A stretch of 59,161 nucleotides of DNA from an uncultured Bacteroidales bacterium (GCA_964567775.1 CAZMPB010000001.1:1-59161); one strand, 5' to 3'. Counted from the stretch's first letter, positions 24,648-59,105 are shown. Translations and numbers: made by a program. Notes: generated from the letters alone by a model not told the origin.

Positions 24648-24715
24648 AATAAAAATCCTGCAAAACATGCCCTACCCTTGCAAGGGATGAGAAAAAAATT
24701 TAATAATTGATCACC

Positions 24716-31719: not shown

Positions 31720-31729
31720 ATATTCCCTG

Positions 31730-35404: not shown

Positions 35405-35422
35405 AATGAGCGTTATGCTTTA

Positions 35423-36400: not shown

Positions 36401-36409
36401 GACTTTAGA

Positions 36410-37237: not shown

Positions 37238-37251
37238 TTTAAAATCCTTAA

Positions 37252-38007: not shown

Positions 38008-38230
38008 GGTATTTCTTTAAAATTTCTTTTCCTTTTTCGTACGATGAAAAATCAATAATATCATCCGTATCCATCATTATATCAAAAGCTTCTTCCAGGG
38101 AAGCAATCAAGCCCATGTGTCCTACCGAATCCCATGCGGGAATTGATTGGTAGGTCAAAGTGGATATTTGTGAATCGTTTGCTTGAAAATTTGTAAAAAA
38201 TACTTCGTTATATTTATCTAAATTTGTCAT
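37994..38230 (-). CDS. Acyl carrier protein (78 aa)
   Basis: AWDSVGHMGLI carries the DS(V/L) phosphopantetheinylation motif. It is the first gene of the minus-strand operon. Confidence 0.75.
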   Translation of the reverse strand: MTNLDKYNEVFFTNFQANDSQISTLTYQSIPAWDSVGHMGLIASLEEAFDIMMDTDDIIDFSSYEKGKEILKKYHVVI

Positions 38231-38426
38231 TGAATATTAAACTTTAATGATAATATTAATTAACAAAAGTATTAAAAAATGGGATAAACTTGTTCCTTTA
38301 TCTAAAAATTATTGGATCAATTCTCAACCAAATAAAAACATAATGCTAATTTGTAAAACAAGAAACATCCAGTATTATTATAAGATGTTTTTTAAAAAAT
38401 AAAAGAACTAAATATTTTTTTATAAA

Positions 38427-39503
38427 ATGAGTATAAAAATCATTCAAATAGATTTATCGACTGAAGATTTAAGTTTAATCGATTTTCTCAATATAAATGT
38501 CAATGATAATATTCGTCATCATACGTTTAAATGGCAATATACCGAAGCTCCACATGATGTTATATTCTTTATGGTAAAAGATGACGATAAGATTATCTCA
38601 ACAGCCTCCTTCATACCCTATAGTTTGTTGTTTGATAAGGAATTTTTTTTAACTGCAAAAGGAGAAAGCTTCTTCCTTGATCCAGATTATCGTTCTACCC
38701 CAATTTTTCCAGCCGTTTATAAGAAAGGATTAATTGAATGTGAAAAAAAAAATATGTCAGTGGTTTGGGGGTTTTCTCCAATATATAAATTTTTTTTAGG
38801 GAAAACGCTTTTCCATGTTTATGGGGATATCATGTTTGATTTTAGAGCTATAGTGGGAATGAAGAAGCTATCAGATTTTAGTTTTGACAGCCAGATAATT
38901 CTAAGATACCCCAAACATTTGGCAAGTTTTTTAATTTCAGGTTTTTTACATTGGAAGTCGAAAATGATATCAAGGTACAAATCCAAAATAAATGAATATT
39001 CAGTAAAAGAAAAATTACCAGACACTTCTCTAATAAATGATTTGTTTGCCAAAATTCCAGGTGTTGAGAATATTGTCAGATTAGATATGGATAATTCATT
39101 TTTGGAGTGGCGAGTATATAATAATCCCAATCTAATTTATAAGACTCATTTCTTTTTTAAAAATAATGTTTTGGAGGGTTTTTATTTTTATAGTATAAAT
39201 GAAAAAAAACTTTGCGTTCAATTAGTTGAATTTGTTTTTATCAATAATAATACAGGAAATGTAATGGCCTGTCATTTAATAAACAAAATGAAAAAAGAAA
39301 AAGCCTCATTTTTGGAATATTTCGGGAATATAAAAAACAAAGTGAATTTGATGGCTTTTTCTATACTACAAAAACATGTTTTTGGAAAAATATATTTGAA
39401 CAAAGGAATGGATTTTATTCAAAAAATCACACCAGAAACAAAAAATTTTCCAATTGAAAATTGGTATATAAATGGATTATGGACACAGGGATATGACCGG
39501 TAA
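38427..39503 (+). CDS. GNAT-like protein, long form (358 aa), paralog group member 2 with a degenerate motif A
   Basis: The layout matches 25720, 46947 and 50135 (GESFFLDPDYRSTPIFPAVYKKG). The position of the usual R-x-x-G-x-(G/A) reads RSTPIF. Very AT-rich gene. Confidence 0.4.
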   Translation: MSIKIIQIDLSTEDLSLIDFLNINVNDNIRHHTFKWQYTEAPHDVIFFMVKDDDKIISTASFIPYSLLFDKEFFLTAKGESFFLDPDYRSTPIFPAVYKKGLIECEKKNMSVVWGFSPIYKFFLGKTLFHVYGDIMFDFRAIVGMKKLSDFSFDSQIILRYPKHLASFLISGFLHWKSKMISRYKSKINEYSVKEKLPDTSLINDLFAKIPGVENIVRLDMDNSFLEWRVYNNPNLIYKTHFFFKNNVLEGFYFYSINEKKLCVQLVEFVFINNNTGNVMACHLINKMKKEKASFLEYFGNIKNKVNLMAFSILQKHVFGKIYLNKGMDFIQKITPETKNFPIENWYINGLWTQGYDR

Positions 39504-39619
39504 TGATTCTTGAAATGGCAAAACCGGCACATGTCAACATTGGTTTTTTAGAAAAAGTTTCATATAAAATTTTGATAATCGCGCAATTTAACTGTGCAGA
39601 AATGAATTGGCATTTAAGA

Positions 39620-41284
39620 TTAATCAGAATATATTTTTATTTGTAAATTAATTTTATCCAGGTTTTTTCTCTCCATGATACCATAGCCTTCAAATTGATA
39701 TGCTTTAAAGGTTAGAAAGTGTGGTTTTACTGCGATTAAGTGATAATTTTTTTCCGGAGTATAAGGATGGTATTCACTAAAGGGGTAAGGGCAATAATAT
39801 GGAAAAAAATTTAGAATAATTATATTATTAGGCAATAGATTTTTTCTTTCAAAGCCTCGGGAATGGTATATTACCTCTTCTATTTGTGAATCTAGATCGT
39901 CAAATTCAAATACGCTTTTTATTTTTTTCAAATCATATTTTTTACTTAAATCCCATACAATGTCCCGTGGATAGCCTAACGATTTATAGGTTAAAAAATT
40001 AACACTAAATTGAATTATAAATATTATTGATATTAAAAATAAAATTAAATTCCTTTTCCTAGTTATTTTATCTAATAAAAATTTTATTGAAAATATAGCG
40101 AAGATGATAAAAAACAAAATATATTGATGTACTAATCTTCCATAGAAAACCATTTTGTGAAAAAAATAACCTGAAGACGCATAAGCTAAAAAAATTACTA
40201 TTACTAAAGAGCCTAATAATAATAAGTCTGAATTATTTTTTAAAAAATTATTGTTTAGTATGGGTTTATTTAATATTTTTTCTTTTATATAAGGCATAAT
40301 TTGATATATTAAAATAATACAAAATAGTACTAACCCTATAATAATAATTACGCCATTAATATGCTCAACACTATAAAGGTACTTTATTATAAATGAAAAT
40401 GATTCCTCAAATGAGCCATTGTCTATCGTTTTGGATAGCCATAATGAATCTGATATTAATGATCTCCCACCCAATCGCGATGCCACTTCAAAAAGAAAAA
40501 GGCAAATAATGCTGCCCAGAAAATAAAAAAAGGCGTATTGTGTTTTTTTTAAAATATTTGCTTTTGATAAGCAATTAAAAAAGAAAAAAAGAAAACAAAC
40601 AAGAAACAATGTAAAATAACCAGGATAAACCAAAAATCCAAAAAATGAAATCAAGCCTAAAAGCAGAGATTTAAATGAAGTCAGGCTTTCATTTTTCTCA
40701 TATTTAAATGTTTTAAACAACACATAAAGCAAGATTAACAAACTTGCATCATAAGGATATGCGTGCCTCAGATAAATATATGAATTAGTTAATGTACAAT
40801 ATATTAGAACACATAAAAGAGAAAGAAGGGTATCTTTTAGTAAAAATTTTGCTATTTTATAAAAAAGTAAAAGAATAAAACAATAAATGATGAAATTATG
40901 AAGGAATAATGGATAATTGTTTTTTGTTTCATAATAATAAAGTTTAAAGATGCAGGCAGTTACATATTGAATTGCATTTGGCAATAAATTGACTATTGCA
41001 CTGGCCGGCCGGCCTTTTGTTAAAAAAATCGAATTAATAGCAGAATCTATTTTTAATTCTGAAGCATATTTCAATGCTGTTCCGGATGTCGTATAAAGGT
41101 TGTCATCATCGTTAGCCTTGAAGCCAGGGCCTATTAATCCAAGTTTAATAATGGTAATTATTATAATACTTGCAACTAGCAAATATTTTAATGGTTCTTG
41201 CTGAAATTTATTTATCGCATTAGATAAGACAAATCTAATCTTATTTGAGAAGGTTTTTTTATAGTTAATATTTTGGAATACCAT
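39620..41284 (-). CDS. Polytopic membrane protein with C-terminal soluble domain (GT-C-like candidate), tandem paralog 1
   Basis: 554 aa. It has an acidic FKANDDDNLY loop after TM1, more than 10 TM helices and a C-terminal ~130 aa hydrophilic domain. Highly similar to 41417-43084. Confidence 0.45.
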   Translation of the reverse strand: MVFQNINYKKTFSNKIRFVLSNAINKFQQEPLKYLLVASIIIITIIKLGLIGPGFKANDDDNLYTTSGTALKYASELKIDSAINSIFLTKGRPASAIVNLLPNAIQYVTACIFKLYYYETKNNYPLFLHNFIIYCFILLLFYKIAKFLLKDTLLSLLCVLIYCTLTNSYIYLRHAYPYDASLLILLYVLFKTFKYEKNESLTSFKSLLLGLISFFGFLVYPGYFTLFLVCFLFFFFNCLSKANILKKTQYAFFYFLGSIICLFLFEVASRLGGRSLISDSLWLSKTIDNGSFEESFSFIIKYLYSVEHINGVIIIIGLVLFCIILIYQIMPYIKEKILNKPILNNNFLKNNSDLLLLGSLVIVIFLAYASSGYFFHKMVFYGRLVHQYILFFIIFAIFSIKFLLDKITRKRNLILFLISIIFIIQFSVNFLTYKSLGYPRDIVWDLSKKYDLKKIKSVFEFDDLDSQIEEVIYHSRGFERKNLLPNNIIILNFFPYYCPYPFSEYHPYTPEKNYHLIAVKPHFLTFKAYQFEGYGIMERKNLDKINLQIKIYSD

Positions 41285-41416
41285 ATCGTTTTTGTTTTAA
41301 AATTTCAGAAAAATAATTTAATAAAATAAATGGCCTATATTAATAGGTATTATAGAATGAAATATTTTTATTTAACTTTCAAAGACCTGTTTAGCTCTGG
41401 CTTGTCCAGGATAGAA

Positions 41417-43084
41417 TTAATCAGAATATATTTTTATTTGTAAATTAATTTTTTCCAGGTTTTTTCTCTCCATGATACCATAGCCTTCAAATTGATATGC
41501 TTTAAAGGTTAGAAAGTGTGGTTTTACTGCGATTAAGTGATAATTTTTTTCCGGAGTATAAGGATGGTATTCACTAAAGTCGTATGGACAATTATATTCA
41601 AAACAGTTTAGAATAATTATATTATTAGGTAATAGATTTTTCCTTTCAAAGTAACGGGAATGATACATTACCGCTTCAACTTGTGAATATTGATCGTCAA
41701 ATTCAAATACGCTTTTTATTTTTTTTAAATCATATTTTTTACTTAAATCCCAAACAATATCCCGTGGATAACCTAACGATTTGTAGGTTGAAAAATTAAC
41801 ACTAAATTGAATAATAAATAATATTGATATTAAAAATAAAATTAAATTCTTTTTCTTGGTTATTTTATCTAATAAATAATTTATAGAAAATACAGCAAAG
41901 ATGATTAAAAACAAAATATATTGATGTACTAATCTTCCATAGAAAACCATTTTATGAAAAAAATAACCACTGGATGCAAAAGCTAAAAAAATAACTATTA
42001 TTAAAGATCCCAACAATAATAAGTCTGAATTAATTCTTATAAATTTATTTTGGGGAATAGGTTTATCCGAAAATTTATTATTATTTATATAAAATCTAAT
42101 ATTATATAATAGAATAAAACAAAAGAGTGCTAACCCTATGATAATAATTATACCATTAATATGCTCAACACTAAAAAGGTACTTTATTATAAATGAAAAT
42201 GATTCCTCAAATGAGCCATTGTCTATAGTATTGGATAGGGTTAATGCATCCGATATTAATGATCTCCCACCCAATCGCGATGCCACTTCAAAAAGGAAAA
42301 GGCAAATAATGCTGCCCAGAAAATAAAAAAAGGCGTATTGTGTTTTTTTAAAAATATTTGCTTTTGACAAGCAATTAAAAAAGAAAAAAAGAAAGCAAAC
42401 AAGAAACAATGTAAAATAACCAGGATAAACCAAAAATCCAAAAAATGAAATCAAGCCTAAAAGCAGAGATTTAAATGAAGTCAGGCTTTCATTTTTCTCA
42501 TATTTAAATGTTTTAAACAACACATAAAGCAAGATTAACAAACTTGCATCATAAGGATATGCGTGCCTCAGATAAATATATGAATTAGTTAATGTACAAT
42601 ATATTAGAACACATAAAAGAGAAAGAAGGGTATCTTTTAGTAAAAATTTTGCTATTTTATAAAAAAGTATAAGAATGAAACAATAAATGATGAAATTATA
42701 AATAAATAATGGATAATTGTTTTTTGTTTCATAATAATAAAGATTAAAGATACGGGCAGTAACATATTGAATGGCATTTGGCACTAAATTAATTATTGAA
42801 CTGGCTGGTCTGCCTTTTGTTAAAAAAATCGAATTAATGGCAGAATCTATTTTAAATTCGGATATATATTTTAATGCTGTACCAGACGTTGTATAAAGAT
42901 TTTCATCATCGTTATGTTTGAAACCAGGCCCCATTAATCCAAGTTTAATAATGGTAATTATTATAATACTTGCGAAAATCAAATGTTTTAATGGTTGTTG
43001 CCTGAACTTTTTAAGAGCATTGGATAAGGTAAGTTTAATTTTATTTGAGAAAGTTTTTTTATGGTTAATAATTGGGGATGACAT
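41417..43084 (-). CDS. Polytopic membrane protein with C-terminal soluble domain (GT-C-like candidate), tandem paralog 2
   Basis: 555 aa with an FKHNDDENLY loop. It has long stretches of nucleotide identity with paralog 1. Confidence 0.45.
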   Translation of the reverse strand: MSSPIINHKKTFSNKIKLTLSNALKKFRQQPLKHLIFASIIIITIIKLGLMGPGFKHNDDENLYTTSGTALKYISEFKIDSAINSIFLTKGRPASSIINLVPNAIQYVTARIFNLYYYETKNNYPLFIYNFIIYCFILILFYKIAKFLLKDTLLSLLCVLIYCTLTNSYIYLRHAYPYDASLLILLYVLFKTFKYEKNESLTSFKSLLLGLISFFGFLVYPGYFTLFLVCFLFFFFNCLSKANIFKKTQYAFFYFLGSIICLFLFEVASRLGGRSLISDALTLSNTIDNGSFEESFSFIIKYLFSVEHINGIIIIIGLALFCFILLYNIRFYINNNKFSDKPIPQNKFIRINSDLLLLGSLIIVIFLAFASSGYFFHKMVFYGRLVHQYILFLIIFAVFSINYLLDKITKKKNLILFLISILFIIQFSVNFSTYKSLGYPRDIVWDLSKKYDLKKIKSVFEFDDQYSQVEAVMYHSRYFERKNLLPNNIIILNCFEYNCPYDFSEYHPYTPEKNYHLIAVKPHFLTFKAYQFEGYGIMERKNLEKINLQIKIYSD

Positions 43085-43184
43085 ATCGTTTTTGTTTTTA
43101 AATTTTAGAAAACTTATTGATGGTTAATAATATATTGGGGCAAATTAGTTATACCTCTTAAAAAAATTATTGTAAAAATAATGA

Positions 43185-44252
43185 TTAACAAATGTCTTCA
43201 TAAAATTTCGTCTTAATATTATTATCATTCCACCATTTATAAATTTTCTCCCCGGAAGTAAGCCAAGCTCCTTTTGAAGAACAATATTCCAAAATTTTGA
43301 TATATAAATTTAAATTATTTTCAGTGAAATAGGTATTATGCCACAACAGATTAAAAACGCCACCCACACTCTCGGTCTTATCAATAAAATCCTTCACATA
43401 TTTCCACGAATTTTCAGAATCAAGTTGCATGTATCTGTCCAATGTGCAATCCATAATAATTAATGGAATGGCAAGAATATCAATATACTCATTTTTCGCT
43501 GAATTATATGGAGTAAATGGATGACATAACCCATTTCTAAATCCGGAAACATCATTATATCCATAGGATGCATCATATTTAAAACCGGCTTTAGACTGAA
43601 TTTCCCATGTTTCAGGATTTTTAAATTTGAGAAAATGGTTTCTGATACCAATTACTTTGCTGTTAATGGTGTTTTCTAGTTTTTGTTTTTCCTGTGAAAG
43701 TTTTTTCAGATCATTATAGGCAAGGTGTCCCGCGTGTAAACCAATTTCCGAATCATTTTCTTTTATTTTTCTTAACACATCTTTTACCTCGTCAATGTTA
43801 TAATTAAAATCCTTTTCGCCCTTATCAAGAGCCAGGAAAAAGAAAGTCGAATTAGCCTGGTATCTTTTTTCTATCTCCAAAATGTTTTGAATATTAAAAT
43901 ATGGGCTATTTCTTTTATTAAAAAGATTTGATAAGGTTGATGAGAATTTATTTAAACTGCCCCTTGAAATACCCTTGACGGCATTCTTTAATATTTCATT
44001 GTTCGGAACAAAAAGCTGATCAATATCATGGGTAAGACAAACGGCAAATTTTTTGTTTCCCGGATATTTAACATTTAACTTATTTTTTTTAAATAAATAT
44101 ACCGAAACAACTGGATTATCAATTTTTAGTGGCGATAAGGCAGCAGTGTTTCTTTGATGAATATCCGTAATTTCCTGATCGTATTCATCTTGTCTGGTAA
44201 ATACTTTTTTTAAATCAAAGAGGGATTCCATTCTTTTAAAATATTTATACAA
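43185..44252 (-). CDS. Polysaccharide-deacetylase-like (CE4-superfamily) protein
   Basis: FAVCLTHDIDQL, IGLHAGHLAY and NLLWHNTYF resemble the Asp/His metal-site blocks of divergent CE4 proteins. Confidence 0.5.
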   Translation of the reverse strand: MYKYFKRMESLFDLKKVFTRQDEYDQEITDIHQRNTAALSPLKIDNPVVSVYLFKKNKLNVKYPGNKKFAVCLTHDIDQLFVPNNEILKNAVKGISRGSLNKFSSTLSNLFNKRNSPYFNIQNILEIEKRYQANSTFFFLALDKGEKDFNYNIDEVKDVLRKIKENDSEIGLHAGHLAYNDLKKLSQEKQKLENTINSKVIGIRNHFLKFKNPETWEIQSKAGFKYDASYGYNDVSGFRNGLCHPFTPYNSAKNEYIDILAIPLIIMDCTLDRYMQLDSENSWKYVKDFIDKTESVGGVFNLLWHNTYFTENNLNLYIKILEYCSSKGAWLTSGEKIYKWWNDNNIKTKFYEDIC

Positions 44253-44609
44253 ACGTAAATAAATTTTTTTGAAAACTTTCTATTTCTGAAAATCAACAAA
44301 AGATTTATCATTGCCATTATAATCATAGCTAATGATATTATATTAATTCGTGAAACAAGCACCATTAATTCACAAGAAACTATATTGATTCTCCCTGCCT
44401 TTTTTATTTAGCGTCCATGAGTAACATAACAATTATATGTTTTTTCATCCTGTATTTCACAAAAGGGAATCTTTCCGTAAAGAAAACTAAATGCTTTACA
44501 ACATTCAAAAAAATGGTAATTTTGAACAATACTTTTATTTGATATTAAAATCATTAGATTTCTTTTTTAAGAACTTCTATTTCTTTATTTATTTTGTAAA
44601 AAAACAGAT

Positions 44610-45647
44610 TTGAAAAAAAATATCCTGCTGACGTTCGACTACGAGTTGTTTCTTGGCCAAAGAAGCGGAACCGTGGATAATTGTCTGATCATTCCTTCTT
44701 ACAGAATCCTTGAAATATTAAATTCAAACAATGCTAAAGCAATTTTTTTTATTGACACCACCTATTTGTTCAGGTTGGAAGAATTAAGCCATACTAATAA
44801 ACGTGCTTATAGCGATTTTGAAAAAATAAAAAAACAGTTGAATGATATTGCAGTTGGCGGGCATTACCTGTTTCATCATATACATCCACACTGGCTCGAC
44901 GCGCAGTACCTCGAAGACATCAATCAATGGAATCTTTCAAATACCGATAGATTTGCTTTTACCATATTAGATGACGCTGAAAAAGATTTATTATTTACAT
45001 ATTCTGATGGTTTTCTCTCCGAAATCTACAAGCAGGCAGGTTCTACAAATAATTGTAATGGTTTTAGAGCAGGCGGACTGTTCATTGTGCCATTCACTTG
45101 TTTTAAGCCATATTTTGAAAAATTTAATATCGGTAATGATTTCAGTGTTTCTCCTGGCGATAAAATAATTGGAGATAAGTGGGGCTATGATTTTTCAAAT
45201 TGCCCCTCAAATCGTGTTTATAGTTTTTATGATCAAGTATCCCTTGAAAACAAAGACAAGAAATTTTGTGAATTTCCTATATCAAAAATTAAAATTAAGG
45301 GAATAACAAAGTTTTTAAACTCGGTCTATTATAGAGTTGGATTAAAAATGCCCCAAAACATCATTCATGGTGATGGCCAGTCTGTTGCCGATGTTACCGG
45401 TATCACTTTGCCGCCAAGGCCATTAAAAAACTACTTTAGCGTGGATTTGAATATTAGTGTTGAAATGCTTAATATGGCCTTAATTCGGTCATATAAAAAA
45501 GTAATAAAACAAAGGCATTATATACATTTTTTGTCTCATCCCAAATTGGTTTCTGAATTTAGTTTGCGATCATTTAACAGGCTGTTGAAATTTTGCAATA
45601 AAAATTTTGACTGCGAATACGACTTTGCAAGATTTGACAAGCTATGA
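44610..45647 (+). CDS. Polysaccharide-deacetylase-like protein (divergent)
   Basis: ILLTFDYELFLG, AKAIFFIDT and HIHPHW. TTG start as given in the ORF track; no in-frame ATG lies nearby. Confidence 0.4.
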   Translation: MKKNILLTFDYELFLGQRSGTVDNCLIIPSYRILEILNSNNAKAIFFIDTTYLFRLEELSHTNKRAYSDFEKIKKQLNDIAVGGHYLFHHIHPHWLDAQYLEDINQWNLSNTDRFAFTILDDAEKDLLFTYSDGFLSEIYKQAGSTNNCNGFRAGGLFIVPFTCFKPYFEKFNIGNDFSVSPGDKIIGDKWGYDFSNCPSNRVYSFYDQVSLENKDKKFCEFPISKIKIKGITKFLNSVYYRVGLKMPQNIIHGDGQSVADVTGITLPPRPLKNYFSVDLNISVEMLNMALIRSYKKVIKQRHYIHFLSHPKLVSEFSLRSFNRLLKFCNKNFDCEYDFARFDKL

Positions 45648-46942
45648 AAAAAGTCCTCATCATTTCTTACTTTTTTCCGCCCTCCACGTTCACGGGGAGT
45701 TTCAGAATTTATTCCTGGGCCAAATACCTGTCGCGCTTTGGCTGGTATCCCATCGTAGTTACCCGCCGCTGGGACTTCCCGGTGAACAATTACAAAGACA
45801 TGTCGGCCACTACCTCCGGCGAGATCGTCCATCAGAAATTTGAAAACTATGAGGTCTACTTTCTCCCATATAAGGGCAACCTCAGAGACCGCCTGCACGA
45901 AAAATACGGCGAAAGAAAAATGGTCACATTCCGTAAGATACTGTCGTTTTTTGAAGTGATAGCTCAGAATTTTACCACGCGGGTAGTCCCGTTCAGAAAT
46001 TTGTACACATTTTCTGACGGCCTTTTAAAACAGGACACCGGCATCAAAGGCATCATCACCTCCGGCAAGCCCTACGTGTTGTTTTCTTTTTGCCACAAGC
46101 TGTCGAAAAAACACCATATCCCCTGGGTGGCCGACTACCGCGACGACTGGAGCACCAGCCAGTGGCTGACCAACTTGTCGCTGCGCGACAGGCTGATCAC
46201 CGCCCTCGAAAAAAGAAGCGAAACCAAATGGCTTGCAAACGCCTGCGGCTTTACGACCATTTCGCCGGCTTACGTTAAACTGATCGCTGACTTTATCGAA
46301 AAACCCGGGTATTCCATCATGAACGGTTTTGACCCCGACGATTATGCCGGCCTGCCCGAAACAAGCAACAATAAGACTTTTACCATAGTATTCAACGGCA
46401 CGTTGTATGAATCGCAGCCTGTGGAATTTTTTACCGAAGCATTCCGAAATTTTGTTCACACGGCAGCCCCCGTGGGCAGTATAAAGTTGATGTTTCTCGG
46501 ACTGAATTTTGAGAAACAACAGGCAGATCGTGTCCGCGGACTTTTAAAGGGATTGGAATCTTATTACGAGATCACCGACAGGGTGGAAAAGAAAAAGGCC
46601 CTCGAGATCATGTCGTCGGCCCATGTATTCCTGATGTTTTCTCATACCGGCATCAAGGGGGTAACATCGAGCAAGATCTTTGACTATCTGGCCATTGGGA
46701 AGCCTTTAATATTAAGCCCTTCCGACCATGAGATCCTTGAAGAGATTATCACGACAACACATTCCGGATTTATTTGTGATACATCTGAAAAAATATTGAT
46801 AATTTTGAAGGCTCTTTTCGACGAATATATTTCAACGGGAAAAATAGCCGACAAAAGAGATTTAAAGGCAATAGCACATTATTCAAGAATTGAGCAGACG
46901 GAAAAATTAGCTAAAGCGCTGGATACTCTTTTAATTGATTAG
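45644..46942 (+). CDS. Glycosyltransferase, GT4-like (GT-B fold)
   Basis: MKKVLIISYFFPPSTFTGSFRIYSWAKYL is a typical GT4 N-terminus. The C-terminal half has a Rossmann-like pattern. Noticeably GC-richer than its neighbours. Confidence 0.6.
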   Translation: MKKVLIISYFFPPSTFTGSFRIYSWAKYLSRFGWYPIVVTRRWDFPVNNYKDMSATTSGEIVHQKFENYEVYFLPYKGNLRDRLHEKYGERKMVTFRKILSFFEVIAQNFTTRVVPFRNLYTFSDGLLKQDTGIKGIITSGKPYVLFSFCHKLSKKHHIPWVADYRDDWSTSQWLTNLSLRDRLITALEKRSETKWLANACGFTTISPAYVKLIADFIEKPGYSIMNGFDPDDYAGLPETSNNKTFTIVFNGTLYESQPVEFFTEAFRNFVHTAAPVGSIKLMFLGLNFEKQQADRVRGLLKGLESYYEITDRVEKKKALEIMSSAHVFLMFSHTGIKGVTSSKIFDYLAIGKPLILSPSDHEILEEIITTTHSGFICDTSEKILIILKALFDEYISTGKIADKRDLKAIAHYSRIEQTEKLAKALDTLLID

Positions 46943-46946
46943 CTTA

Positions 46947-47960
46947 ATGATCATTGTCAAAAAATACGATATCAACTTTGCAGGACAGGTTCTCGATCTG
47001 CTCAGGCCGCTTTGGGGGCATATGCAACCGGAAGAAGGAGAATCGTATTTTAAATGGAAGTATATTGACAATCCCTGTACGGATGATATTTTATATTTTA
47101 CAGCGATCGATGAAGCCAAACAAAAAGTTGTTGGCGTATTAGGTTTTTTGATCTTGCAATATAACTTAAACGGAAAAACAATTAATCTTGCCACTATCTC
47201 TGACGGTTTGATACACGCTGACTACAGGAGGATGGGCATTTATGATAAACTGATCCGGTACGGGATGAATTTTATCCGTGAAAATTACGGTGTCTTTTTT
47301 TGCAATGCCACTTCGGGTAATTATCCGGCTAATCAGGGACTGATAAAAATGGGCAGCATCCCCATCGCACAAAAAAAGATTTTTTATAAAACGGCTCTTT
47401 ATCCGTATTACAGGCACAGGCATGACGACTATGCGTTCAGTTGTGCAACAGAGGCAAGGCCCGGCGAAATGGCCGCCTTATGTGAAAAAAACCGGAATAA
47501 CGCCGTCCTAAGCCTGAACAAAACAAGGGAATTCCTTAGCTGGAGATATAGTAATCCCCACCCGCAGTATGGTTATGTATATGCCTACAAGGGCAACGAC
47601 CTGGTGGCTTTTGTGTCGTATTATAAGATTTCAGATCGCAGGCACTTCATTTTAGACTATGAATACTGCGAAAAAGACATTTTCAGATCTCTGATTAAAT
47701 TTCTTATGAAACACGAAAATTGTCGCTTGTTGCAATTATGGACAATTTCAAAGAATGAGGCCGAAATGAAATTTTTACATTCGCTTGGGTTCAGGCCATA
47801 CATCAAACTAATGAAACTATTAAAGAAAGAAGGATCTTCTCCTGTGTTGGTTCGTCCATGTATTCCGGAATATACAGAGAAAGACTTTTATATCGACGGC
47901 ATTGACATGAGAAACGAATTTAACTGGGAGCTCAATTTAATTTGTTCAGATGGGATATAA
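46947..47960 (+). CDS. GNAT-like acyltransferase, long form, paralog group member 3
   Basis: ISDGLIHADYRRMGIYDKLI is a motif A. The ATG at 46947 lies 5 nt after the upstream stop and is preferred over the TTG at 46935. Confidence 0.6.
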   Translation: MIIVKKYDINFAGQVLDLLRPLWGHMQPEEGESYFKWKYIDNPCTDDILYFTAIDEAKQKVVGVLGFLILQYNLNGKTINLATISDGLIHADYRRMGIYDKLIRYGMNFIRENYGVFFCNATSGNYPANQGLIKMGSIPIAQKKIFYKTALYPYYRHRHDDYAFSCATEARPGEMAALCEKNRNNAVLSLNKTREFLSWRYSNPHPQYGYVYAYKGNDLVAFVSYYKISDRRHFILDYEYCEKDIFRSLIKFLMKHENCRLLQLWTISKNEAEMKFLHSLGFRPYIKLMKLLKKEGSSPVLVRPCIPEYTEKDFYIDGIDMRNEFNWELNLICSDGI

Positions 47961-48834
47961 AACACAAATATTTGGTTTTCATCGTATTTCCGACGAATTC
48001 TCGCCTGCGTATCCGCCAATACCTGTAAAGGTTTTTGAAAAGATATTGTCCTACATCAACAGGCATTATTTTGTAATCCCTATCGAAGATATCGGCAAAA
48101 GTTTCACCACGAAAAAAACACGGCTGGTCATCACTTTTGACGATGCCTATTATGATTTTTACGAAAATGCCCTTCCTTTGCTGAGCAAATACAAATTCCC
48201 GGCTTTGCAGCATGTGATAACTCATTCGGCGGAAACAGGCGAAAGTTTCTGGACACAAAGGCTGAACAAAATGATGGAAGCCTGTTTTATGGGAAAAAGA
48301 GAACTGGTGATCCCGGAACTCCAGATAAATCGCAGGCTGAATAACGCCAAAGAAGTCGAAAAAACAGCCCTTGAAGTATACCTGTTGCTGCTTGACAGAA
48401 CAGACAGAGAGGATATCCTGAAAAAGATGGAAGAACCAATAAAAGATCAGGTGGCTTATACCCGTATGATGGGATGGAAAGAACTGAATGAATGTACTAA
48501 ATTCGGCATCAGTATTGGCTCACACACACACAACCATGCCACGCTTTCAAATATGGATGAGGCCGCATTGAAATTTGAACTGGAACATTCACGTAAATTG
48601 ATCCTCGGCAATGTTCCTTCTTCCGAATGCTTGTCACTGGCTTTTCCAAATGGAAAATTTAACGATGCTGTTATTCGGGTAGCCCGTGATACAGGATACA
48701 AATACTTGCTAAGCGCAGAAAACGCTTCTGCGAATGGAAATGATTGGAGTTCCGTTTTGCCAAGATTTTGCATTTACAATAAAGAATGGTGGAAAAATTA
48801 TGTAAAACTATTTTTAATCAGACGAACAAAATGA
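47950..48834 (+). CDS. Polysaccharide deacetylase (CE4 / NodB-homology) family protein
   Basis: LVITFDDAYYDFYENALPLLSKYKFPA, IGSHTHNH and LAFPNGKF. Confidence 0.8.
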   Translation: MGYKTQIFGFHRISDEFSPAYPPIPVKVFEKILSYINRHYFVIPIEDIGKSFTTKKTRLVITFDDAYYDFYENALPLLSKYKFPALQHVITHSAETGESFWTQRLNKMMEACFMGKRELVIPELQINRRLNNAKEVEKTALEVYLLLLDRTDREDILKKMEEPIKDQVAYTRMMGWKELNECTKFGISIGSHTHNHATLSNMDEAALKFELEHSRKLILGNVPSSECLSLAFPNGKFNDAVIRVARDTGYKYLLSAENASANGNDWSSVLPRFCIYNKEWWKNYVKLFLIRRTK

Positions 48835-48978
48835 TACAGGACCGGCCTGAAAAACCCAAAAAAATAAAAATACAGTTATTGGTTTTTGATAGCAGGTTGC
48901 TTTCAGGAAATTTTTTGTTTCAACTGACGAATACGTTATAAATGAATATAAACAGACATTATTTTAAGTTATTTTTCG

Positions 48979-48986
48979 TACCTTTG
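48979..48986 (+). promoter_or_regulatory. Candidate -7 box (TAnnTTTG)
   Basis: tacctttg lies 35 nt upstream of the ATG at 49022, after a 187-bp gap. Confidence 0.4.
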
Positions 48987-49021
48987 CCCCTTTAAAAATC
49001 CAGCCTAACTGCACAAAAAAG

Positions 49022-50116
49022 ATGAAAGACCTTAAAAATATCACGAAATTATCAAAAGAGAACTTTGATAAAATCAATAAGCAATATCCGATCAGAATAT
49101 CAAAATATCTTTTTGAACAGATCAAAAAAAGCGAATACATAGCGAAACAATTTTTGCCCAGCATCGATGAGTTAAACGAAAACATATCCATTACAGAACC
49201 CTTTAAGGGCCTGTTGGAAACCGAAATAAAAATTTTTGAAAGGCTGTACGAAGACAGGGTGGTTTTAAAACTGACCAGCCTCTGCCCTTCGCATTGCCGT
49301 TTTTGTTACAGGAGGGGCTATGTTTTCGGAGAAGAAAAGAGGATCACAAAACCCGAATTGGATAAAGCCATCAGCCTGGTTAAAAAGGACAAATCCATAA
49401 GAAGCGTATTACTCACAGGAGGATTTCCTATCGTTCTCGGAGTTGAAAAAATTGAAAAAGTGATTTCCGAGGTTGTCAAAATAGAACATATTAACCAGAT
49501 ATATTTTGCATTGGGCCGGCCTATAATGGATTCGTCAATTATCACCGACGAATTTGTGGAAATGATCGTGAGGATCAATAACCAGTTGACCAATAAAAAC
49601 ATTGCATGCACGGTGCACATCAACCACCCCGATGAACTCACCCCGGAAGTTATCAGCGCGCTGAAAAAACTCACATCAAGAGGGATCACCATCTGGAATC
49701 AGTCCACCTTGCTGAAAGGCATAAATGATGATGAAAAGACCATATCCAAATTATCCGCAGATCTCAGGGCAAATGGCCTGATACCTTATTATCTGATACA
49801 CGCGATGCCCATGATCGGGTCGGGCCATTTCAGGACCTCGGTGGCAAAAGGTATAAAACTGATGAAATACATGGAACAATTTTCCGGGCACGAAAGGCCT
49901 ATTTATATTGTGATACCATCTGCCGGAAAAGTACAATTATCGGGCGATAGCAAGCTGAAATATAAAATAGCCAACGGTAAAAGATACGTGGTGCTCCATA
50001 CGCCGTATAAAGCAAAAGATTTTTTACAAAGATGCAAACTGGCCGAATTGCCCGAAAAACACTATGTGGACAGTAAGGGATATGTCGTAGCCGAGTATCT
50101 GGACGGTGAAGATTAA
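49022..50116 (+). CDS. KamA-family radical SAM protein (lysine 2,3-aminomutase-like)
   Basis: The C-x3-C-x2-C cluster CPSHCRFC (nt 49283-49306) is followed by YRRG. Overall KamA/EpmB-like length and blocks (LLTGGFPI, IPYYLIH). The usual GG(D/E)P reads GGFP. Confidence 0.7.
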   Translation: MKDLKNITKLSKENFDKINKQYPIRISKYLFEQIKKSEYIAKQFLPSIDELNENISITEPFKGLLETEIKIFERLYEDRVVLKLTSLCPSHCRFCYRRGYVFGEEKRITKPELDKAISLVKKDKSIRSVLLTGGFPIVLGVEKIEKVISEVVKIEHINQIYFALGRPIMDSSIITDEFVEMIVRINNQLTNKNIACTVHINHPDELTPEVISALKKLTSRGITIWNQSTLLKGINDDEKTISKLSADLRANGLIPYYLIHAMPMIGSGHFRTSVAKGIKLMKYMEQFSGHERPIYIVIPSAGKVQLSGDSKLKYKIANGKRYVVLHTPYKAKDFLQRCKLAELPEKHYVDSKGYVVAEYLDGED

Positions 50117-50134
50117 TCAGATAATTCAATAGTA

Positions 50135-51124
50135 ATGGGCGACTACAGGATAGAGCAATTTTCAATTCAGGACAATGAACAATTGGCCCTGCTGATGAAA
50201 AACTGTTTCAATCAGGACGTGCCCGCCGATTATTTTACCTGGAAATATTTTAAAAACCCGGCAGGTAATTCCATCGGGTTTGTTGCAAAAACGGAACAGG
50301 GCGAAATAGTTGCCTTTGAAGGATTGATGCCGGAACTTTACAGTATTGAAGGTGAACAGAAAATTGTCTATCACTCTACAGATACGATGACCCATTCGGA
50401 ACACCGGGGAAAAGGCCTGTACACCAAAATTGCCAATGCTGGTTTTGAATACCTCAGGCAACAGGACAAGCTTTTTGAAATCGGGTTTGGTGGGGCGATG
50501 TCCACCCCGATCATTCAGAAGTTTGGCTGGAAAACGATCTTCTTTATCCATTTTTATTTTAAAACTTATTTTCAGTCATTTTATAAAAATTTCTTCTTTT
50601 CCGGGCGGCTGAAATCAAGTGGTTATATCATCAGAAAAATCGACAACATCAACGATATATTGCCTGTTATTGAGTGTAAAAAAAACTCAAAAGTACATAA
50701 GGTAATCTCAGGGGATGTTTATTCGTGGAAAACAGCAAATCCAAGATTTAAATACAACATCGCAGGAATCTATGACCCTCCGAATATTTTGAAAGGATAT
50801 GCGGTTTATTATATCCAGAACAATAAAATAATGCTTTTTGACATAGGTTTTGTTGAGGACAAGTCAAAATTCGTAAAATTATTATTTCAGTGGCTCGATC
50901 AGGAGGTGGTAAAAAACAAATATACAGGAATAGTAACCTTTTCTCAAAAAAGCACCCCTTATTATTCAATACTTAGAAAGAATGGGTTTATAAACAACAA
51001 TATGGGGCTTGGCCCCCTGGGATATAAAATTCCATTCATGATCTATTGTGATGACGACACCTATAAAAGAATAAATGAGCCTGAATCCTGGGCCATAACC
51101 CCTGTTTGTCATGACAGTTTTTAA
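50135..51124 (+). CDS. GNAT-like acyltransferase, long form, paralog group member 4
   Basis: STDTMTHSEHRGKGLYTKI is a motif A. Same architecture as 25720 and 46947. Confidence 0.6.
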   Translation: MGDYRIEQFSIQDNEQLALLMKNCFNQDVPADYFTWKYFKNPAGNSIGFVAKTEQGEIVAFEGLMPELYSIEGEQKIVYHSTDTMTHSEHRGKGLYTKIANAGFEYLRQQDKLFEIGFGGAMSTPIIQKFGWKTIFFIHFYFKTYFQSFYKNFFFSGRLKSSGYIIRKIDNINDILPVIECKKNSKVHKVISGDVYSWKTANPRFKYNIAGIYDPPNILKGYAVYYIQNNKIMLFDIGFVEDKSKFVKLLFQWLDQEVVKNKYTGIVTFSQKSTPYYSILRKNGFINNNMGLGPLGYKIPFMIYCDDDTYKRINEPESWAITPVCHDSF

Positions 51125-52352
51125 CAAAAATAAGGTCCTCGAAAAATATAAAGGCCTCACTCCTTTCTATTGTAAAAAGCTGCATGATATTAAATCTTTT
51201 GGACAAGCCCCATTTACAAGCAAACCAGAACTTTTAGCTTCTCAGGGGAGCCATCCGCCTTTTGGAGATTTCACGGATAGCAAGGTCGCTATAAGCCAGA
51301 TATACAGAACAAGCGGAACATCGTCCAATCCCTTATTGCTGACGTTCAGCAAAAAAGATATAGATTTCATTACGGATATCGGCAGGGAATGCCTTATTTA
51401 TGCAGGAATGGGCAGTTCCGGAAATAAGGAAATAGTCATCAACTGCCTTAACCTGTCCATGTGGGTCGGCGGCGTACTTGATTCCCAGTCAATAAGTAAA
51501 ACCGGCGTACAGGTGATAAATTTCGGCGCAGGGAACACATCAGAACTTATCCGCCTGATCAAAGACCTGAGCGCTTCTAAAAAATATAAAATATCACTGC
51601 ATTGTACCCCTTCCTATCTCCCTCATATTGAATCAAGGCTAAAAACAGAATACAACTTATCGCCACGGGATTTAAATGTTCATTCTTTTTATCTCGGAGG
51701 TGAGTCGGGAATACAAAACAATAATTACCGCCGGACACTGGTAGAAAAATGGCGGTCGAACATTATCAACGCGAACTATGGCATGAGCGAAATATGTTCT
51801 GCGCTTGCCTCAGCAAACGATGAAAACATATTACGTTTTGCCCCGCTGTTCTTACAAAAATATTATATAGAGCTGCAGACCAGCAATGACGGTATAAAGC
51901 CTTTTGAAAGCATCTGTGAAGGCGACGAAGGGGAACTGGTCGTGAGCACACCGGAAAAAGAAAGTCAGCCATTGTTCAGGTACAATTCCAAAGAAATCAT
52001 ACGAATAATCAAAAAAAATAAACAGGATTTGTTTTTCGAGATACTCGGAAGAACCGACGATATGCTTATTTACAAGGGCATCAATGTTTTCCCGGAACAG
52101 TTCCGCAATATCATCAATAATTTTAGTGAATTATCAGGGTTGTACAAGATCCAGGTCAAAAAAGACAATGATATTATCGAAAAAATAGTTCTTGTCTGCG
52201 AAGTAAATAAAAACTCAAAATTTAATGAACCTGAACTAAAAAATAAGCTGGCTGTAAAAATTAAAAGTGAGCTTTCTATTTTGCCTTCAATCGTTTTTAC
52301 AAAAAAAATAAATATCGAAGGAAACAAAATAAAACTGGTCGAAATCATTTAA
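51111..52352 (+). CDS. PaaK-like adenylate-forming enzyme (phenylacetate-CoA ligase / CapK / F390-synthetase family)
   Basis: IYRTSGTSSNPLL (P-loop-like) and GRTDDMLIYKGINVFPEQF are typical of PaaK-family ligases. Overlaps the upstream gene by 14 nt. Confidence 0.7.
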   Translation: MTVFNKNKVLEKYKGLTPFYCKKLHDIKSFGQAPFTSKPELLASQGSHPPFGDFTDSKVAISQIYRTSGTSSNPLLLTFSKKDIDFITDIGRECLIYAGMGSSGNKEIVINCLNLSMWVGGVLDSQSISKTGVQVINFGAGNTSELIRLIKDLSASKKYKISLHCTPSYLPHIESRLKTEYNLSPRDLNVHSFYLGGESGIQNNNYRRTLVEKWRSNIINANYGMSEICSALASANDENILRFAPLFLQKYYIELQTSNDGIKPFESICEGDEGELVVSTPEKESQPLFRYNSKEIIRIIKKNKQDLFFEILGRTDDMLIYKGINVFPEQFRNIINNFSELSGLYKIQVKKDNDIIEKIVLVCEVNKNSKFNEPELKNKLAVKIKSELSILPSIVFTKKINIEGNKIKLVEII

Positions 52353-52391
52353 TCGGAAGACTTTACCGAAAATTGTTCAGGCTTCCGCCTG

Positions 52392-53822
52392 TCATTCATC
52401 CTCCTGCAATTCTTCTTCCGGACTCTCTTCCTCACGGCTATCAGCGTCACGGCTTTTTTTATACTGTTTATATTTATCCAGCATAATAAAAACGCTGGTG
52501 ACAAAAAATGGCTGTGCCGGTATCCTGTAGCGGACCAGTGCCCCAAAGTTGGCAGAAGCCATGCCTACGGCGAACATAAAAAAGATGGTAAAGATCATGG
52601 CAAACAATAAAATGGGATCGGAAAAAATATACCCGAAAAAGCGTATGACTTTAAGTTTAAACAACAGATATAAGGTCATGATCAATAATATAAAATTTTC
52701 CAATCCGGAAATAAGCATAACAGGGTTTCGTGCTTCCCATAAAAAAGGCCTGTACATCCCTGCCATAATAGCCGCTGGTGCAATTTTCAACATTCCTGCA
52801 GTGGTTCCGTCGATAGTTCCGATATTGTAAGAATTTTCTCCGTATTGCTCGGAACGCGTAAGGTCCTGCTGTATGGTTTGAGCCTTTTTAATTGACTGAT
52901 CAACATTGCCGTAGGTACCCATAGAACTCGACAAAGAGGACATAACAACCATGGTAATGCCAAAGCCCAGAACAATCATTACAGGCATGGCCATGGTGGC
53001 GATAACTTTATTCTTAATGTTCTTTATTTTTCTAAACAAAGCCCATACAACGATACCGGGAAATAAAGCAACAAAAATATAAGGCTTGATCGAAATAATT
53101 ATATAAATATTTAAAAGGGCAAAGATTATATTGATCGGGATCTTTTGCTTTTTGAAAAAGATCATAAAAATATTATAAACCAGCCATCCTGATGCCGCAA
53201 ATGTATAAGTGTCCTTCATCACTCCCGACCCCCAGAAAAGCAATGAGGGGAAAAAGAGTACGGCTATGGCAATTTGTTTTCTCAGATGGGCATAATAGTT
53301 CGTGAAAAAAAGATACAATTTCCAGACACCAAAATATGAAAATGTCGCCACCAATATGGTGGTAGGCATATACGACCCCATCCCCAACATGCAGAATAAG
53401 CTTGATATTGAAACAACAAACCTTGTTTCAGTGCCCCGCCACATATGATAGGCAGGAAAGCCCATCTCATTATCAAAGAAATTATAAGACACTTCCCAAT
53501 CAACCTGGTCGAAAAAAATCGCCCAAAATTCTGAGGAGTCTTTATAAAAAAGCTTGACCATCGACATGCAGGCTGAAATATAATCACAGGTGTCGCCCCA
53601 GCCATAGTATTCCGTAAAAATCAACAAAAAGATCAGGGCGGAAAACAATTTGGTGGCCAGGCCTGATAAATAATATTGGTAGGCGGGATTTTCTTCAATT
53701 TTTTTCCTCTGGTGCATTGAGCCGGCAACCAGAATAATAATAATTAACATCGGCGTATAGAAATAGTCGGCCATGTCGAAAATTACCCAGTCAATTCCGT
53801 CTATTAGCTTTAAAATAACCAT
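52392..53822 (-). CDS. Polytopic membrane protein, possible Wzy/EpsG-like polymerase, with acidic C-terminal tail
   Basis: About 12 hydrophobic helices, a large loop (SSMGTYGNVDQSIKKAQTIQQDL...) and the tail SREEESPEEELQEDE. I recognise no confident family motif. Confidence 0.35.
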   Translation of the reverse strand: MVILKLIDGIDWVIFDMADYFYTPMLIIIILVAGSMHQRKKIEENPAYQYYLSGLATKLFSALIFLLIFTEYYGWGDTCDYISACMSMVKLFYKDSSEFWAIFFDQVDWEVSYNFFDNEMGFPAYHMWRGTETRFVVSISSLFCMLGMGSYMPTTILVATFSYFGVWKLYLFFTNYYAHLRKQIAIAVLFFPSLLFWGSGVMKDTYTFAASGWLVYNIFMIFFKKQKIPINIIFALLNIYIIISIKPYIFVALFPGIVVWALFRKIKNIKNKVIATMAMPVMIVLGFGITMVVMSSLSSSMGTYGNVDQSIKKAQTIQQDLTRSEQYGENSYNIGTIDGTTAGMLKIAPAAIMAGMYRPFLWEARNPVMLISGLENFILLIMTLYLLFKLKVIRFFGYIFSDPILLFAMIFTIFFMFAVGMASANFGALVRYRIPAQPFFVTSVFIMLDKYKQYKKSRDADSREEESPEEELQEDE

Positions 53823-58762: not shown

Positions 58763-58835
<73 letters not shown>

Positions 58836-58838
58836 CTG

Positions 58839-59105
58839 ATGGAGGGTATACTTTATATTCTTTTTAGCAATAAGCTCAACAAATACTACATCGGTTCAAC
58901 AAACGATATTCAAAGGCGTTTGTATGAACATAATATCGGACATTCTGCTTTTACCAGACTTGGTATTCCATGGTCATTAGTCTTTTCCAGACAGTTTCCT
59001 TCTCTGGAACTTGCCAGAAAGGAAGAGCTTCGGATAAAAAAGTGCAAAAGTAGAAAGTATATTGAAAAATACATGAAATCCGCGGTAGAGCATCCCGACA
59101 CGTAA
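58839..59105 (+). CDS. GIY-YIG nuclease-family protein
   Basis: ILYILFSNKLNKYYIGSTNDIQRRLYEHN carries the GIY...YIG...R..EH motifs. The start is set at the ATG just after the tRNA; the ORF-track start at 58800 lies inside the tRNA. Confidence 0.8.
   Translation: MEGILYILFSNKLNKYYIGSTNDIQRRLYEHNIGHSAFTRLGIPWSLVFSRQFPSLELARKEELRIKKCKSRKYIEKYMKSAVEHPDT

Follow-up and report, generated by a model that had tools for sequence, protein, structure and literature searches.

A stretch of 59,161 nt from an uncultured Bacteroidales bacterium (GCA_964567775.1 CAZMPB010000001.1:1-59161; hereafter the window) carries a three-gene cassette whose products are a KamA-like radical S-adenosylmethionine (SAM) protein (gene 1), a two-domain GNAT N-acyltransferase (GNAT3) and a PaaK-family adenylate-forming ligase (gene 3). 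A gene for a CE4 sugar N-deacetylase (DEAC2) precedes them. With moderate confidence, we propose that this cassette makes a beta-amino acid other than beta-lysine, activates it and attaches it to a de-acetylated amino sugar. The initial annotation of this DNA had suggested that the trio makes, activates and attaches an amino acid to a sugar amine. The general scheme holds up, since a CE4 deacetylase is always adjacent and a parallel cassette is present in other Bacteroidales and in a Vibrio, but beta-lysine as the product and the analogy to the AblA/AblB pair, if taken as homology, do not.

When open reading frames (ORFs) were re-called in the window, the three genes were recovered at the positions and on the strand originally assigned (Table 1), with 18 nt separating genes 1 and 2 and 14 nt shared by genes 2 and 3. 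Pfam and NCBIfam assign the products as a radical-SAM/KamA-like protein, an Acetyltransf_9 GNAT and a PaaK-family ligase. The same searches of the window agree with the earlier view that the trio lies in a glycan locus, as glycosyltransferase, aminotransferase and deacetylase genes surround it.

Gene 1 encodes a divergent member of the KamA family. Its product matches Radical_SAM in Pfam and all KamA-family models in NCBIfam, and it passes none of the curated cut-offs. The scores are 187 bits for AblA_like_2 (cut-off 396), 180 bits for glutamate 2,3-aminomutase (TIGR04368; cut-off 650), 167.5 bits for AblA (TIGR03820; cut-off 525), 166.4 bits for the KamA subfamily (TIGR00238; cut-off 199.2), 162 bits for arginine 2,3-aminomutase (cut-off 600) and 152 bits for EpmB (TIGR03821; cut-off 369). 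The protein is not EpmB, whose model gives the lowest of the KamA-family scores, and none of the genes called in the loci that were fetched for comparison (L numbers below) was noted as epmA or efp. By sequence, the sole solved relative is lysine 2,3-aminomutase (LAM; PDB 2A5H), with E = 6e-35 and ∼31% identity over ∼295 residues.

Active-site residues were compared by using a MAFFT alignment of 17 members of the clade that contains gene 1 (clade A), 17 members of a neighboring clade, six LAM-like sequences and the 2A5H segment. The CPSHCRFC cluster seen at the outset occupies residues 88-95, and its three cysteines (C88, C92 and C95), which align with C125, C129 and C132 of LAM, are invariant in the 17 homologues. 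R97 corresponds to LAM R134, which binds the substrate carboxylate, and is conserved in clade A. A lysine for binding pyridoxal phosphate (PLP) is also present. This residue, K303, is invariant in a P-x-x-G-K motif and is aligned with the PGGGGK lysine of LAM-like sequences (LAM K337), an assignment made by motif and position because the HMMER local alignments end at residue 300. Equivalents of LAM Q258 and Y113 are invariant across the 17 clade-A members. The family homology and the retained PLP lysine uphold the KamA-like identity given to this protein at the start.

The lysine-binding positions have a different character. LAM D293 and D330, which hold the lysine epsilon-ammonium in LAM (2A5H), are M262 and I298 in gene 1, and these positions are Met and Ile/Leu/Val in all 17 clade-A members. 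The Zn-site cysteines that one would look for in a canonical KamA protein were not found: the Zn ligand C268 is replaced by Asp, and the protein has neither a C-terminal CxCxxC motif nor a LAM_C domain. LAM R112 and D172 are replaced as well, and a YLDG motif specific to the clade closes the C-terminal 60 residues. Because the lysine-binding aspartates are replaced and the Zn site is absent, the beta-lysine product first envisaged is unlikely, and the residues favor an amino acid that is neutral or hydrophobic. The pocket is predicted to be hydrophobic and the substrate to be neither basic nor acidic, and gene 1 would accordingly encode a 2,3-aminomutase with a non-basic substrate.

An oddity pointed out in the initial annotation is that the GG(D/E)P motif reads GGFP in this protein. 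This tract is indeed present in LLTGGFPIV (G133, G134, F135 and P136), but it is not a defining feature of the family. Although G133-G134 of this SAM-binding motif is invariant, residue 135 varies among F, T, S, I and V within the clade; it is Asp or Glu in LAM-like, clade B and clade C sequences, with clade C having the canonical GGDP. In a neighbor-joining tree, gene 1 falls in a monophyletic clade A (mean identity 64%), with clade B (36%) as its sister group and the LAM-like sequences (31%) branching apart. Clade B is a large Bacteroidota clade of KamA-like proteins, of which those in L006 and L007 are ∼38% identical to gene 1. In clade B proteins, the two lysine-binding positions are occupied by Met and Ala and the residue that corresponds to LAM R134 is Lys, and in L006 and L007 the gene is located directly upstream of a luciferase-like (LLM) oxidoreductase gene, not of GNAT or ligase genes.

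Linkage of the trio was confirmed. Every fetched Bacteroidales locus with a clade-A gene has the series deacetylase–KamA–GNAT–ligase, and the KamA-GNAT-ligase order with an adjacent CE4 gene is kept as the identity of the KamA protein falls from 98% (L104) through 83% (L094), 80-81% (L013, L014, L097 and L001-L003) and 67% (L004) to 57% (L005, which equals L017). A CE4 gene or domain lies beside the trio in all related loci. It is immediately upstream in L001, L002, L003, L004, L005, L014, L094, L097 and L104, is set apart from the trio by an inserted GIY-YIG-like ORF in L013 and is downstream in L108. In L004 and L005, the deacetylase is fused to a GT1 glycosyltransferase (779 and 732 aa, respectively), and these fusion genes are upstream of the trio. 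The translation of DEAC2 shows the metal-site motifs TFDD and HTHNH. The deacetylase is a core part of the module that the initial annotation missed.

Clade A is found in 4 of 185,579 species genomes examined by a pattern scan. The partner genes are carried by 3 of 3 Bacteroidales and are missing from a Saccharibacteria genome. Two further clade-A genes are without partners, and one of them adjoins a gene for a class-III (omega/beta) aminotransferase. The presence of this aminotransferase gene beside a clade-A relative fits a free beta-amino acid as the product.

GNAT3 matches Acetyltransf_9 (PF13527) with 44.8 bits (cut-off 25), and in an alignment it has the conserved motif DTMTHSxHRRKGL, as well as the Eis-like HRR(K/G)KGL motif. 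An AlphaFold (AF2) model built from 19 sequences, with a predicted local distance difference test (pLDDT) value of 90.4, adopts a tandem-GNAT fold. According to Foldseek, the closest structures are Eis-like acetyltransferases (2hv2, 3n7z and 2i00) and N-myristoyltransferases (NMTs), with E values of 1e-16 to 1e-15 and a TM score of 0.64. The modeled fold and the motif are consistent with an acyl-coenzyme A (CoA) donor that may be larger than acetyl. These characteristics set limits on the analogy with AblA/AblB, which cannot be read as homology: GNAT3 scores 17.5 bits against AblB (TIGR03827; cut-off 205) and has a two-domain Eis/NMT-like fold. There is also no FemAB or pepcterm_femAB match for GNAT3 in Pfam or NCBIfam.

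The GNAT3 family has no curated model or name in NCBIfam. An exhaustive profile search (E ≤ 1e-30) yields ∼242 clusters at 50% identity; the idea that the family is extremely rare, which came from a word-index search that gave 18 clusters, was discarded. Three distant homologues (32-38% identity) occur in loci that have no KamA gene and no ligase gene, and a CE4 deacetylase gene is immediately upstream in each. The CE4 and GNAT genes overlap by 4 nt in two of the three loci, and the window itself holds another deacetylase/GNAT pair (Table 1). The fact that this pairing exists without the KamA and ligase genes suggests that the core unit is a deacetylase plus a tandem GNAT. Since the distant homologues always follow a CE4 gene, the GNAT3 acceptor is most simply a de-acetylated amine.

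The ligase is homologous over its full length to PaaK-type CoA ligases (PDB 4r1l, E = 1e-34 in a profile search). When aligned with 4r1l, its adenylation motifs are evident as the P-loop TSGTSSNP, YGMSE and GRTDDMLIYKGINVFP. With 132.3 bits against PaaK (TIGR02155; cut-off 646), the protein is a family-level relative only, and we describe it as a putative beta-amino-acid–CoA ligase. In all loci with a captured upstream flank (13 of 14 from metagenomes), the ligase gene lies beside a GNAT3 homologue; the remaining contig begins within the ligase gene. In L106 (1345-1812), the ligase ORF is only 155 aa long and is followed by opposite-strand ORFs, and this locus may be a decayed cassette or an assembly chimera.

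Relatives of the ligase from outside the cassette (49-61% identity, ∼30 clusters, some from isolates) reveal a second arrangement. The nearest of these, in L103, L107 and L108/L109, are in glycan loci and adjoin KamA-like genes. In the isolate Vibrio sp. HN007 (CP145311.1), the gene order is PIG-L deacetylase–ligase–LpxD-like UDP-sugar N-acyltransferase–KamA-like radical SAM. This cassette sits inside an O-antigen/capsular polysaccharide locus with gene families that match those of the Wbp pathway (GFO/IDH/MocA oxidoreductase, hexapeptide acetyltransferase, DegT aminotransferase and UDP-sugar 2-epimerase) and a gene for an asparagine-synthase-like amidotransferase. In L108/L109 and L103, the order is (acyl-CoA dehydrogenase, MaoC)–GNAT–ligase–LpxD-like–KamA-like–CE4 deacetylase, and in these Bacteroidales the GNAT is 44% identical to GNAT3 and the ligase is 53% identical to that of the window. 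The KamA-like proteins of the second arrangement constitute clade C, which is ∼30% identical to gene 1; the Cys, Arg and Lys residues are kept, and both LAM Asp positions are hydrophobic. This independent arrangement strengthens the case for linkage.

Two loci provide evidence for exchange of the cassette. L108 shares framework genes with the window (56-80% identity) yet carries the alternative clade-C cassette. In comparison with positions 43185-53822 of the window, the VimE-like protein is 70% identical, a 345-aa protein 60%, the GT1 protein 65%, the deacetylase 80% and a membrane protein 56%. In L013, identity to the window is 93-99% as far as the deacetylase gene and drops to 75-81% in the KamA and GNAT genes. 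A GIY-YIG-like ORF of 110 aa (L013 5018-5350) lies exactly at the break, where identity changes from 93% for the deacetylase to 81% for KamA. The alternative cassette of L108 and the mosaic boundary of L013 suggest that the cassette is an acyl-donor module that can be exchanged while the scaffold around it is conserved, and the decoration cassette appears to be hypervariable within that scaffold. The window also has a GIY-YIG-like ORF, which overlaps tRNA-Thr(CGT).

Comparative genomics shows the gene identities, the intact catalytic motifs, the loss of the lysine-binding residues and the conserved linkage. From these observations we predict the aminomutase activity, which amino acid is used, a CoA intermediate, the sugar that acts as acceptor and the sequence of the steps. 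In the proposed pathway, the CE4 deacetylase would strip the N-acetyl group from an amino sugar that is nucleotide- or lipid-linked or is already part of the glycan. The KamA-like radical-SAM/PLP enzyme would act on a free amino acid that is neutral or hydrophobic, rather than on lysine, and shift its amino group from C2 to C3. The PaaK-family ligase would then adenylate the resulting beta-amino acid and most likely convert it to a CoA thioester, from which the tandem GNAT would transfer the beta-aminoacyl group onto the freed sugar amine. In clade-C cassettes, the LpxD-like enzyme would acylate the sugar amine in place of the GNAT. If the cassette is exchanged as a unit in the conserved framework, then the surface antigen would be diversified.

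A bolder form of this hypothesis is put forward more tentatively, as a possibility to which we give somewhat less than even weight. The proteins of clades A and C would be natural radical-SAM/PLP 2,3-aminomutases whose substrate is neutral or hydrophobic, converting, for instance, alanine to beta-alanine or leucine to beta-leucine, and the product would be an unreported beta-aminoacyl N-substituent on amino sugars of Bacteroidales and Vibrio surface glycans, with cassette swaps leading to antigenic diversity. We know of no KamA-type gene for a neutral or hydrophobic substrate.

Several considerations weigh against the beta-aminoacylation pathway. The score below the TIGR00238 cut-off and the Phe that replaces the acidic residue of GG(D/E) mean that the aminomutase chemistry is presumed. 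PaaK-family enzymes are not all CoA-thioester formers. Because a GNAT and an LpxD-like enzyme coexist in L108, GNAT3-type enzymes might instead cap the amino group of an acyl residue that is already attached. The clade-A KamA genes of Saccharibacteria and of one other contig lack the partners, and the evidence comes almost entirely from metagenome-assembled genomes (MAGs) and metagenome contigs. In the literature, no glycan structure with a beta-aminoacyl group was found, and nothing was found that links KamA-family/aminomutase or PaaK-like genes to O-antigen, capsule or glycan loci.

Other scenarios could also explain this gene arrangement. The PaaK-like ligase might itself couple the amino acid made by the KamA-like enzyme directly to the sugar amine, or to the carboxylate of a uronic acid, without a CoA intermediate, leaving GNAT3 to cap the free amino group of the attached residue. 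The product would be an N-acyl-aminoacyl decoration like the N-acetyl-alanyl and N-(3-hydroxybutyryl)-alanyl groups that are known decorations of amino sugars (PMC3210612). Such capping would fit the presence of both a GNAT and an LpxD-like transferase in L108/L109, where the acyl-CoA dehydrogenase and the MaoC hydratase could supply 3-hydroxyacyl-CoA, and it would fit the Vibrio cassette, which is without a GNAT3 homologue. We nevertheless consider this scenario unlikely. GNAT3 homologues without the ligase and KamA genes are still tightly paired with CE4 genes, which points to a sugar amine as the acceptor; the cassettes of L004 and L005 have a single acyltransferase; and the solved structures nearest to the ligase are those of CoA ligases.

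A further departure from the proposed pathway would be that the radical-SAM protein has the KamA fold and is not an aminomutase. It would then conduct other radical chemistry on an acyl group or a sugar, such as a C-methylation-independent rearrangement, an epimerization or a dehydration, and the ligase and GNAT would add an ordinary acyl group that is not derived from a beta-amino acid. This notion draws on the subthreshold KamA subfamily score, the replacement of LAM R112 and D172, the missing Zn site and the uncharacterized status of all three non-LAM clades (A, B and C), and the pairing of clade B with a luciferase-like oxidoreductase hints at different chemistry in the wider group. However, the invariance of the PLP lysine, the carboxylate arginine and the Q258/Y113 equivalents in 17 members would be hard to explain without PLP-amino-acid chemistry, and a clade-A relative adjoins the class-III aminotransferase gene, making this explanation rather improbable in our estimation. 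The KamA-family homology and the neighboring GNAT gene also raise the prospect of an AblA/AblB pair that makes the osmolyte N-acetyl-beta-lysine, or of an EpmB that provides beta-lysine for elongation factor P (EF-P), placed in a glycan locus by chance. Both candidates were rejected on hidden Markov model (HMM) scores and active-site residues and are effectively excluded: the AblA, EpmB and AblB scores fall short as given above, Met and Ile occupy the positions of both Asp residues that bind the lysine epsilon-amine, the genes are linked in every locus to those for a deacetylase, a ligase and glycosyltransferases, and no epmA or efp was noted when the genes of the fetched loci were called.

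Comparison with known systems helps to define what is distinctive about the beta-aminoacylation pathway. With the LAM/KamA family (Clostridium subterminale, 2A5H), gene 1 shares the CxxxCxxC radical-SAM core, the G-K PLP lysine and the carboxylate arginine; it differs in having Met and Ile for Asp293 and Asp330, no Zn-site cysteines or LAM_C domain, GGF for GGD, and a glycan-locus context. GNAT3 resembles the Eis/NMT tandem GNATs in having two GNAT domains in one chain and an HRR(K/R)GL CoA-binding motif. It differs from them in its low identity (10-14%), in lacking an SCP2-like third domain (329 versus ∼390 aa) and in being partnered with a sugar deacetylase. The ligase has full-length homology and the core adenylation motifs in common with the PaaK family (4r1l, 2y27 and the 2-hydroxyisobutyryl-CoA synthetase 6hdw), whereas its PaaK score is far below the cut-off and its nearest relatives are in glycan loci beside KamA-like genes.

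Amide linkage of beta-amino acids to sugar amines is established in antibiotic biosynthesis, where beta-lysine is carried on gulosamine (streptothricin) and beta-arginine on cytosinine (blasticidin S; BlsG). In these pathways, a KamA-type aminomutase supplies the beta-amino acid, an adenylating enzyme activates it and an amide link to the sugar amine is made. These are systems of actinomycete secondary metabolism that use basic amino acids and coupling by nonribosomal peptide synthetases (NRPSs) or by ATP-grasp-type enzymes. In contrast, the cassette described here is part of a cell-surface glycan locus and combines a PaaK-type ligase, a GNAT or LpxD-like transferase and a substrate pocket that is predicted to be non-basic.

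The Wbp/Vim pathway of Porphyromonas gingivalis and Tannerella forsythia is a parallel among surface glycans. VimE deacetylates and VimA adds Ser or Gly to yield 2-N-seryl/glycyl-3-N-acetyl-(gluc/mann)uronic acid (PMC7468200). The shared logic is that a CE4 enzyme removes an N-acetyl group and a GNAT-superfamily enzyme aminoacylates the freed amine of a Bacteroidota surface-glycan sugar. However, GNAT3 is Eis/NMT-like and not FemAB/VimA-like, and the cassette deacetylase is a generic CE4 protein. The Vim genes in PMC7468200 include no aminomutase and no ligase, whereas the cassette has both, and these two enzymes imply a non-proteinogenic (beta) amino acid and a CoA-type donor. Elsewhere in the window, a VimE-like gene scores 140 bits (cut-off 440) and a FemAB-like gene scores 28 bits (cut-off 260). 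The resemblance between the cassette and the Wbp/Vim system is functional and does not amount to membership. Related chemistry is known from antibiotics and the Vim pathway; what would set the cassette apart from the latter is a dedicated supply line for a non-proteinogenic amino acid.

If the proposed pathway is correct, then the substrate range of the KamA family would extend beyond Lys, Arg and Glu to non-basic amino acids. Functions would also be assigned to an unnamed family of tandem GNATs and to a subgroup of PaaK-like ligases that recurs in polysaccharide loci, and structural glycobiologists could search for beta-amino acids as a predicted new class of N-acyl decoration on glycans. More generally, modules that deacetylate and re-acylate by using exchangeable acyl-donor cassettes may diversify the surface antigens of Bacteroidota. 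The hypothesis spans phyla, and the cultured Vibrio sp. HN007 allows a direct test of the prediction.

The initial annotation also ascribed to gene 1 its own candidate promoter at position 48979. The element at this site, TACCTTTG, was recovered and is of the Bacteroidetes type TAnnTTTG. Across the whole window, this pattern is not over-represented (72 matches versus 86 in shuffles). Its matches do cluster 5′ of gene starts, with 19 of 72 falling within 100 nt upstream compared with 2.9 expected. Moreover, seven of eight related loci retain the pattern between −40 and −44 relative to the orthologous gene, although the intergenic sequence has diverged. These findings suggest that the cassette has its own candidate promoter. 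A sigma-70 promoter scan was uninformative (39 matches versus 32.5 expected), and the Bacteroidetes TAnnTTTG analysis was used in its place.

Table 1. Coordinates of the cassette and of other features in the window
Feature	Position	Strand	Basis or remark
Three-gene cassette	49022-52352	+	ORFs re-read in the window
Gene 1, divergent KamA-family radical-SAM/PLP enzyme, clade A, 364 aa	49022-50116	+	NCBIfam, 2A5H match, residues
GNAT3, two-domain Eis/NMT-like GNAT N-acyltransferase, 329 aa	50135-51124	+	Pfam, AF2 model, Foldseek
Gene 3, PaaK-family adenylate-forming ligase, 413 aa	51111-52352	+	Pfam AMP-binding_C_2, NCBIfam PaaK, 4r1l profile match
Candidate Bacteroidetes −7 element TACCTTTG	48979-48986	+	Fits TAnnTTTG; 43 nt 5′ of the KamA-like ATG
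DEAC2, CE4 polysaccharide/sugar N-deacetylase	47950-48834	+	Polysacc_deac_1, 78.6 bits
GNAT2, second long GNAT	46935-47960	+	Pfam Acetyltransf_1/_7/_9
GT1/GT4-like glycosyltransferase, conserved framework	45644-46942	+	Pfam Glycos_transf_1, weak
Polytopic membrane protein, 476 aa, convergent to the ligase	52392-53822	-	No family assignment
Third CE4 deacetylase	24707-25720		Joined end to start to the third long GNAT
Third long GNAT, Eis-like	25720-26664		Paired with third CE4 deacetylase
PIG-L	13080-13718
VimE-like	43185-44252	-	140 bits
Weak CE4-like ORF	44610-45647
Weak Acetyltransf_9 ORF	38427-39503
FemAB/pepcterm_femAB-like gene	30712-31719		Within the 30712-38007 region
Region with LuxC–LuxE–ligase module	30712-38007
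Low-GC island	38000-44000
AAA_14/DUF4143-type ATPase gene	19515-20789
AAA_14/DUF4143-type ATPase gene	23430-24647
tRNA-Thr(CGT)	58763-58836
GIY-YIG-like ORF	58800-59105

The cassette is flanked by framework genes. The convergent gene for the 476-aa membrane protein recurs with the cassette order across loci and is kept next to the ligase gene in at least 12 of them (41-96% identity; 56% in L108). This protein has no Pfam or NCBIfam match even at E ≤ 5 and no similarity to the DUF6056 protein of the window, and a single-sequence AF2 model was unusable (pLDDT 43.9). It is a candidate glycan-processing partner, such as a polymerase or a transferase. GNAT2, a paralogue that is ∼21% identical to GNAT3 in an alignment, is optional, since it is absent from L004 and L005.

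Among database entries, the nearest relatives are MAGs from Bacteroidales, and the isolate name of at least one points to a sludge digester as its source. A search of plasmid DNA with the trio gave no match. Besides the genes described above, the window contains several GT2/GT4 glycosyltransferase genes, a DegT aminotransferase gene, a PglD-like acetyltransferase gene, a FabH-like gene, a LuxC/LuxE/AMP-ligase module, at least five sugar deacetylase genes, three long GNAT genes and a FemAB-like gene. The window is unusually rich in parts for removing acetyl groups and re-acylating, and the additional ones are listed in Table 1.

The FemAB-like gene adjoins a minus-strand LuxC–LuxE–AMP-binding ligase–split transketolase–short-chain dehydrogenase/reductase (SDR) module. 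This arrangement resembles another acyl-activation line for glycan decoration, unrelated to that of the cassette. The low-GC island has a GC content of 25-28%, compared with ∼38% elsewhere, and contains three ORFs (358, 554 and 555 aa) that lack significant family matches, with one showing weak similarity to Acetyltransf_9 (E 0.018). The FemAB-like gene of L013/L014 is immediately next to the gene for the 345-aa framework protein, which suggests an insertion of ∼13 kb in the window. Finally, two genes for AAA_14/DUF4143-type ATPases are located inside the glycan locus.

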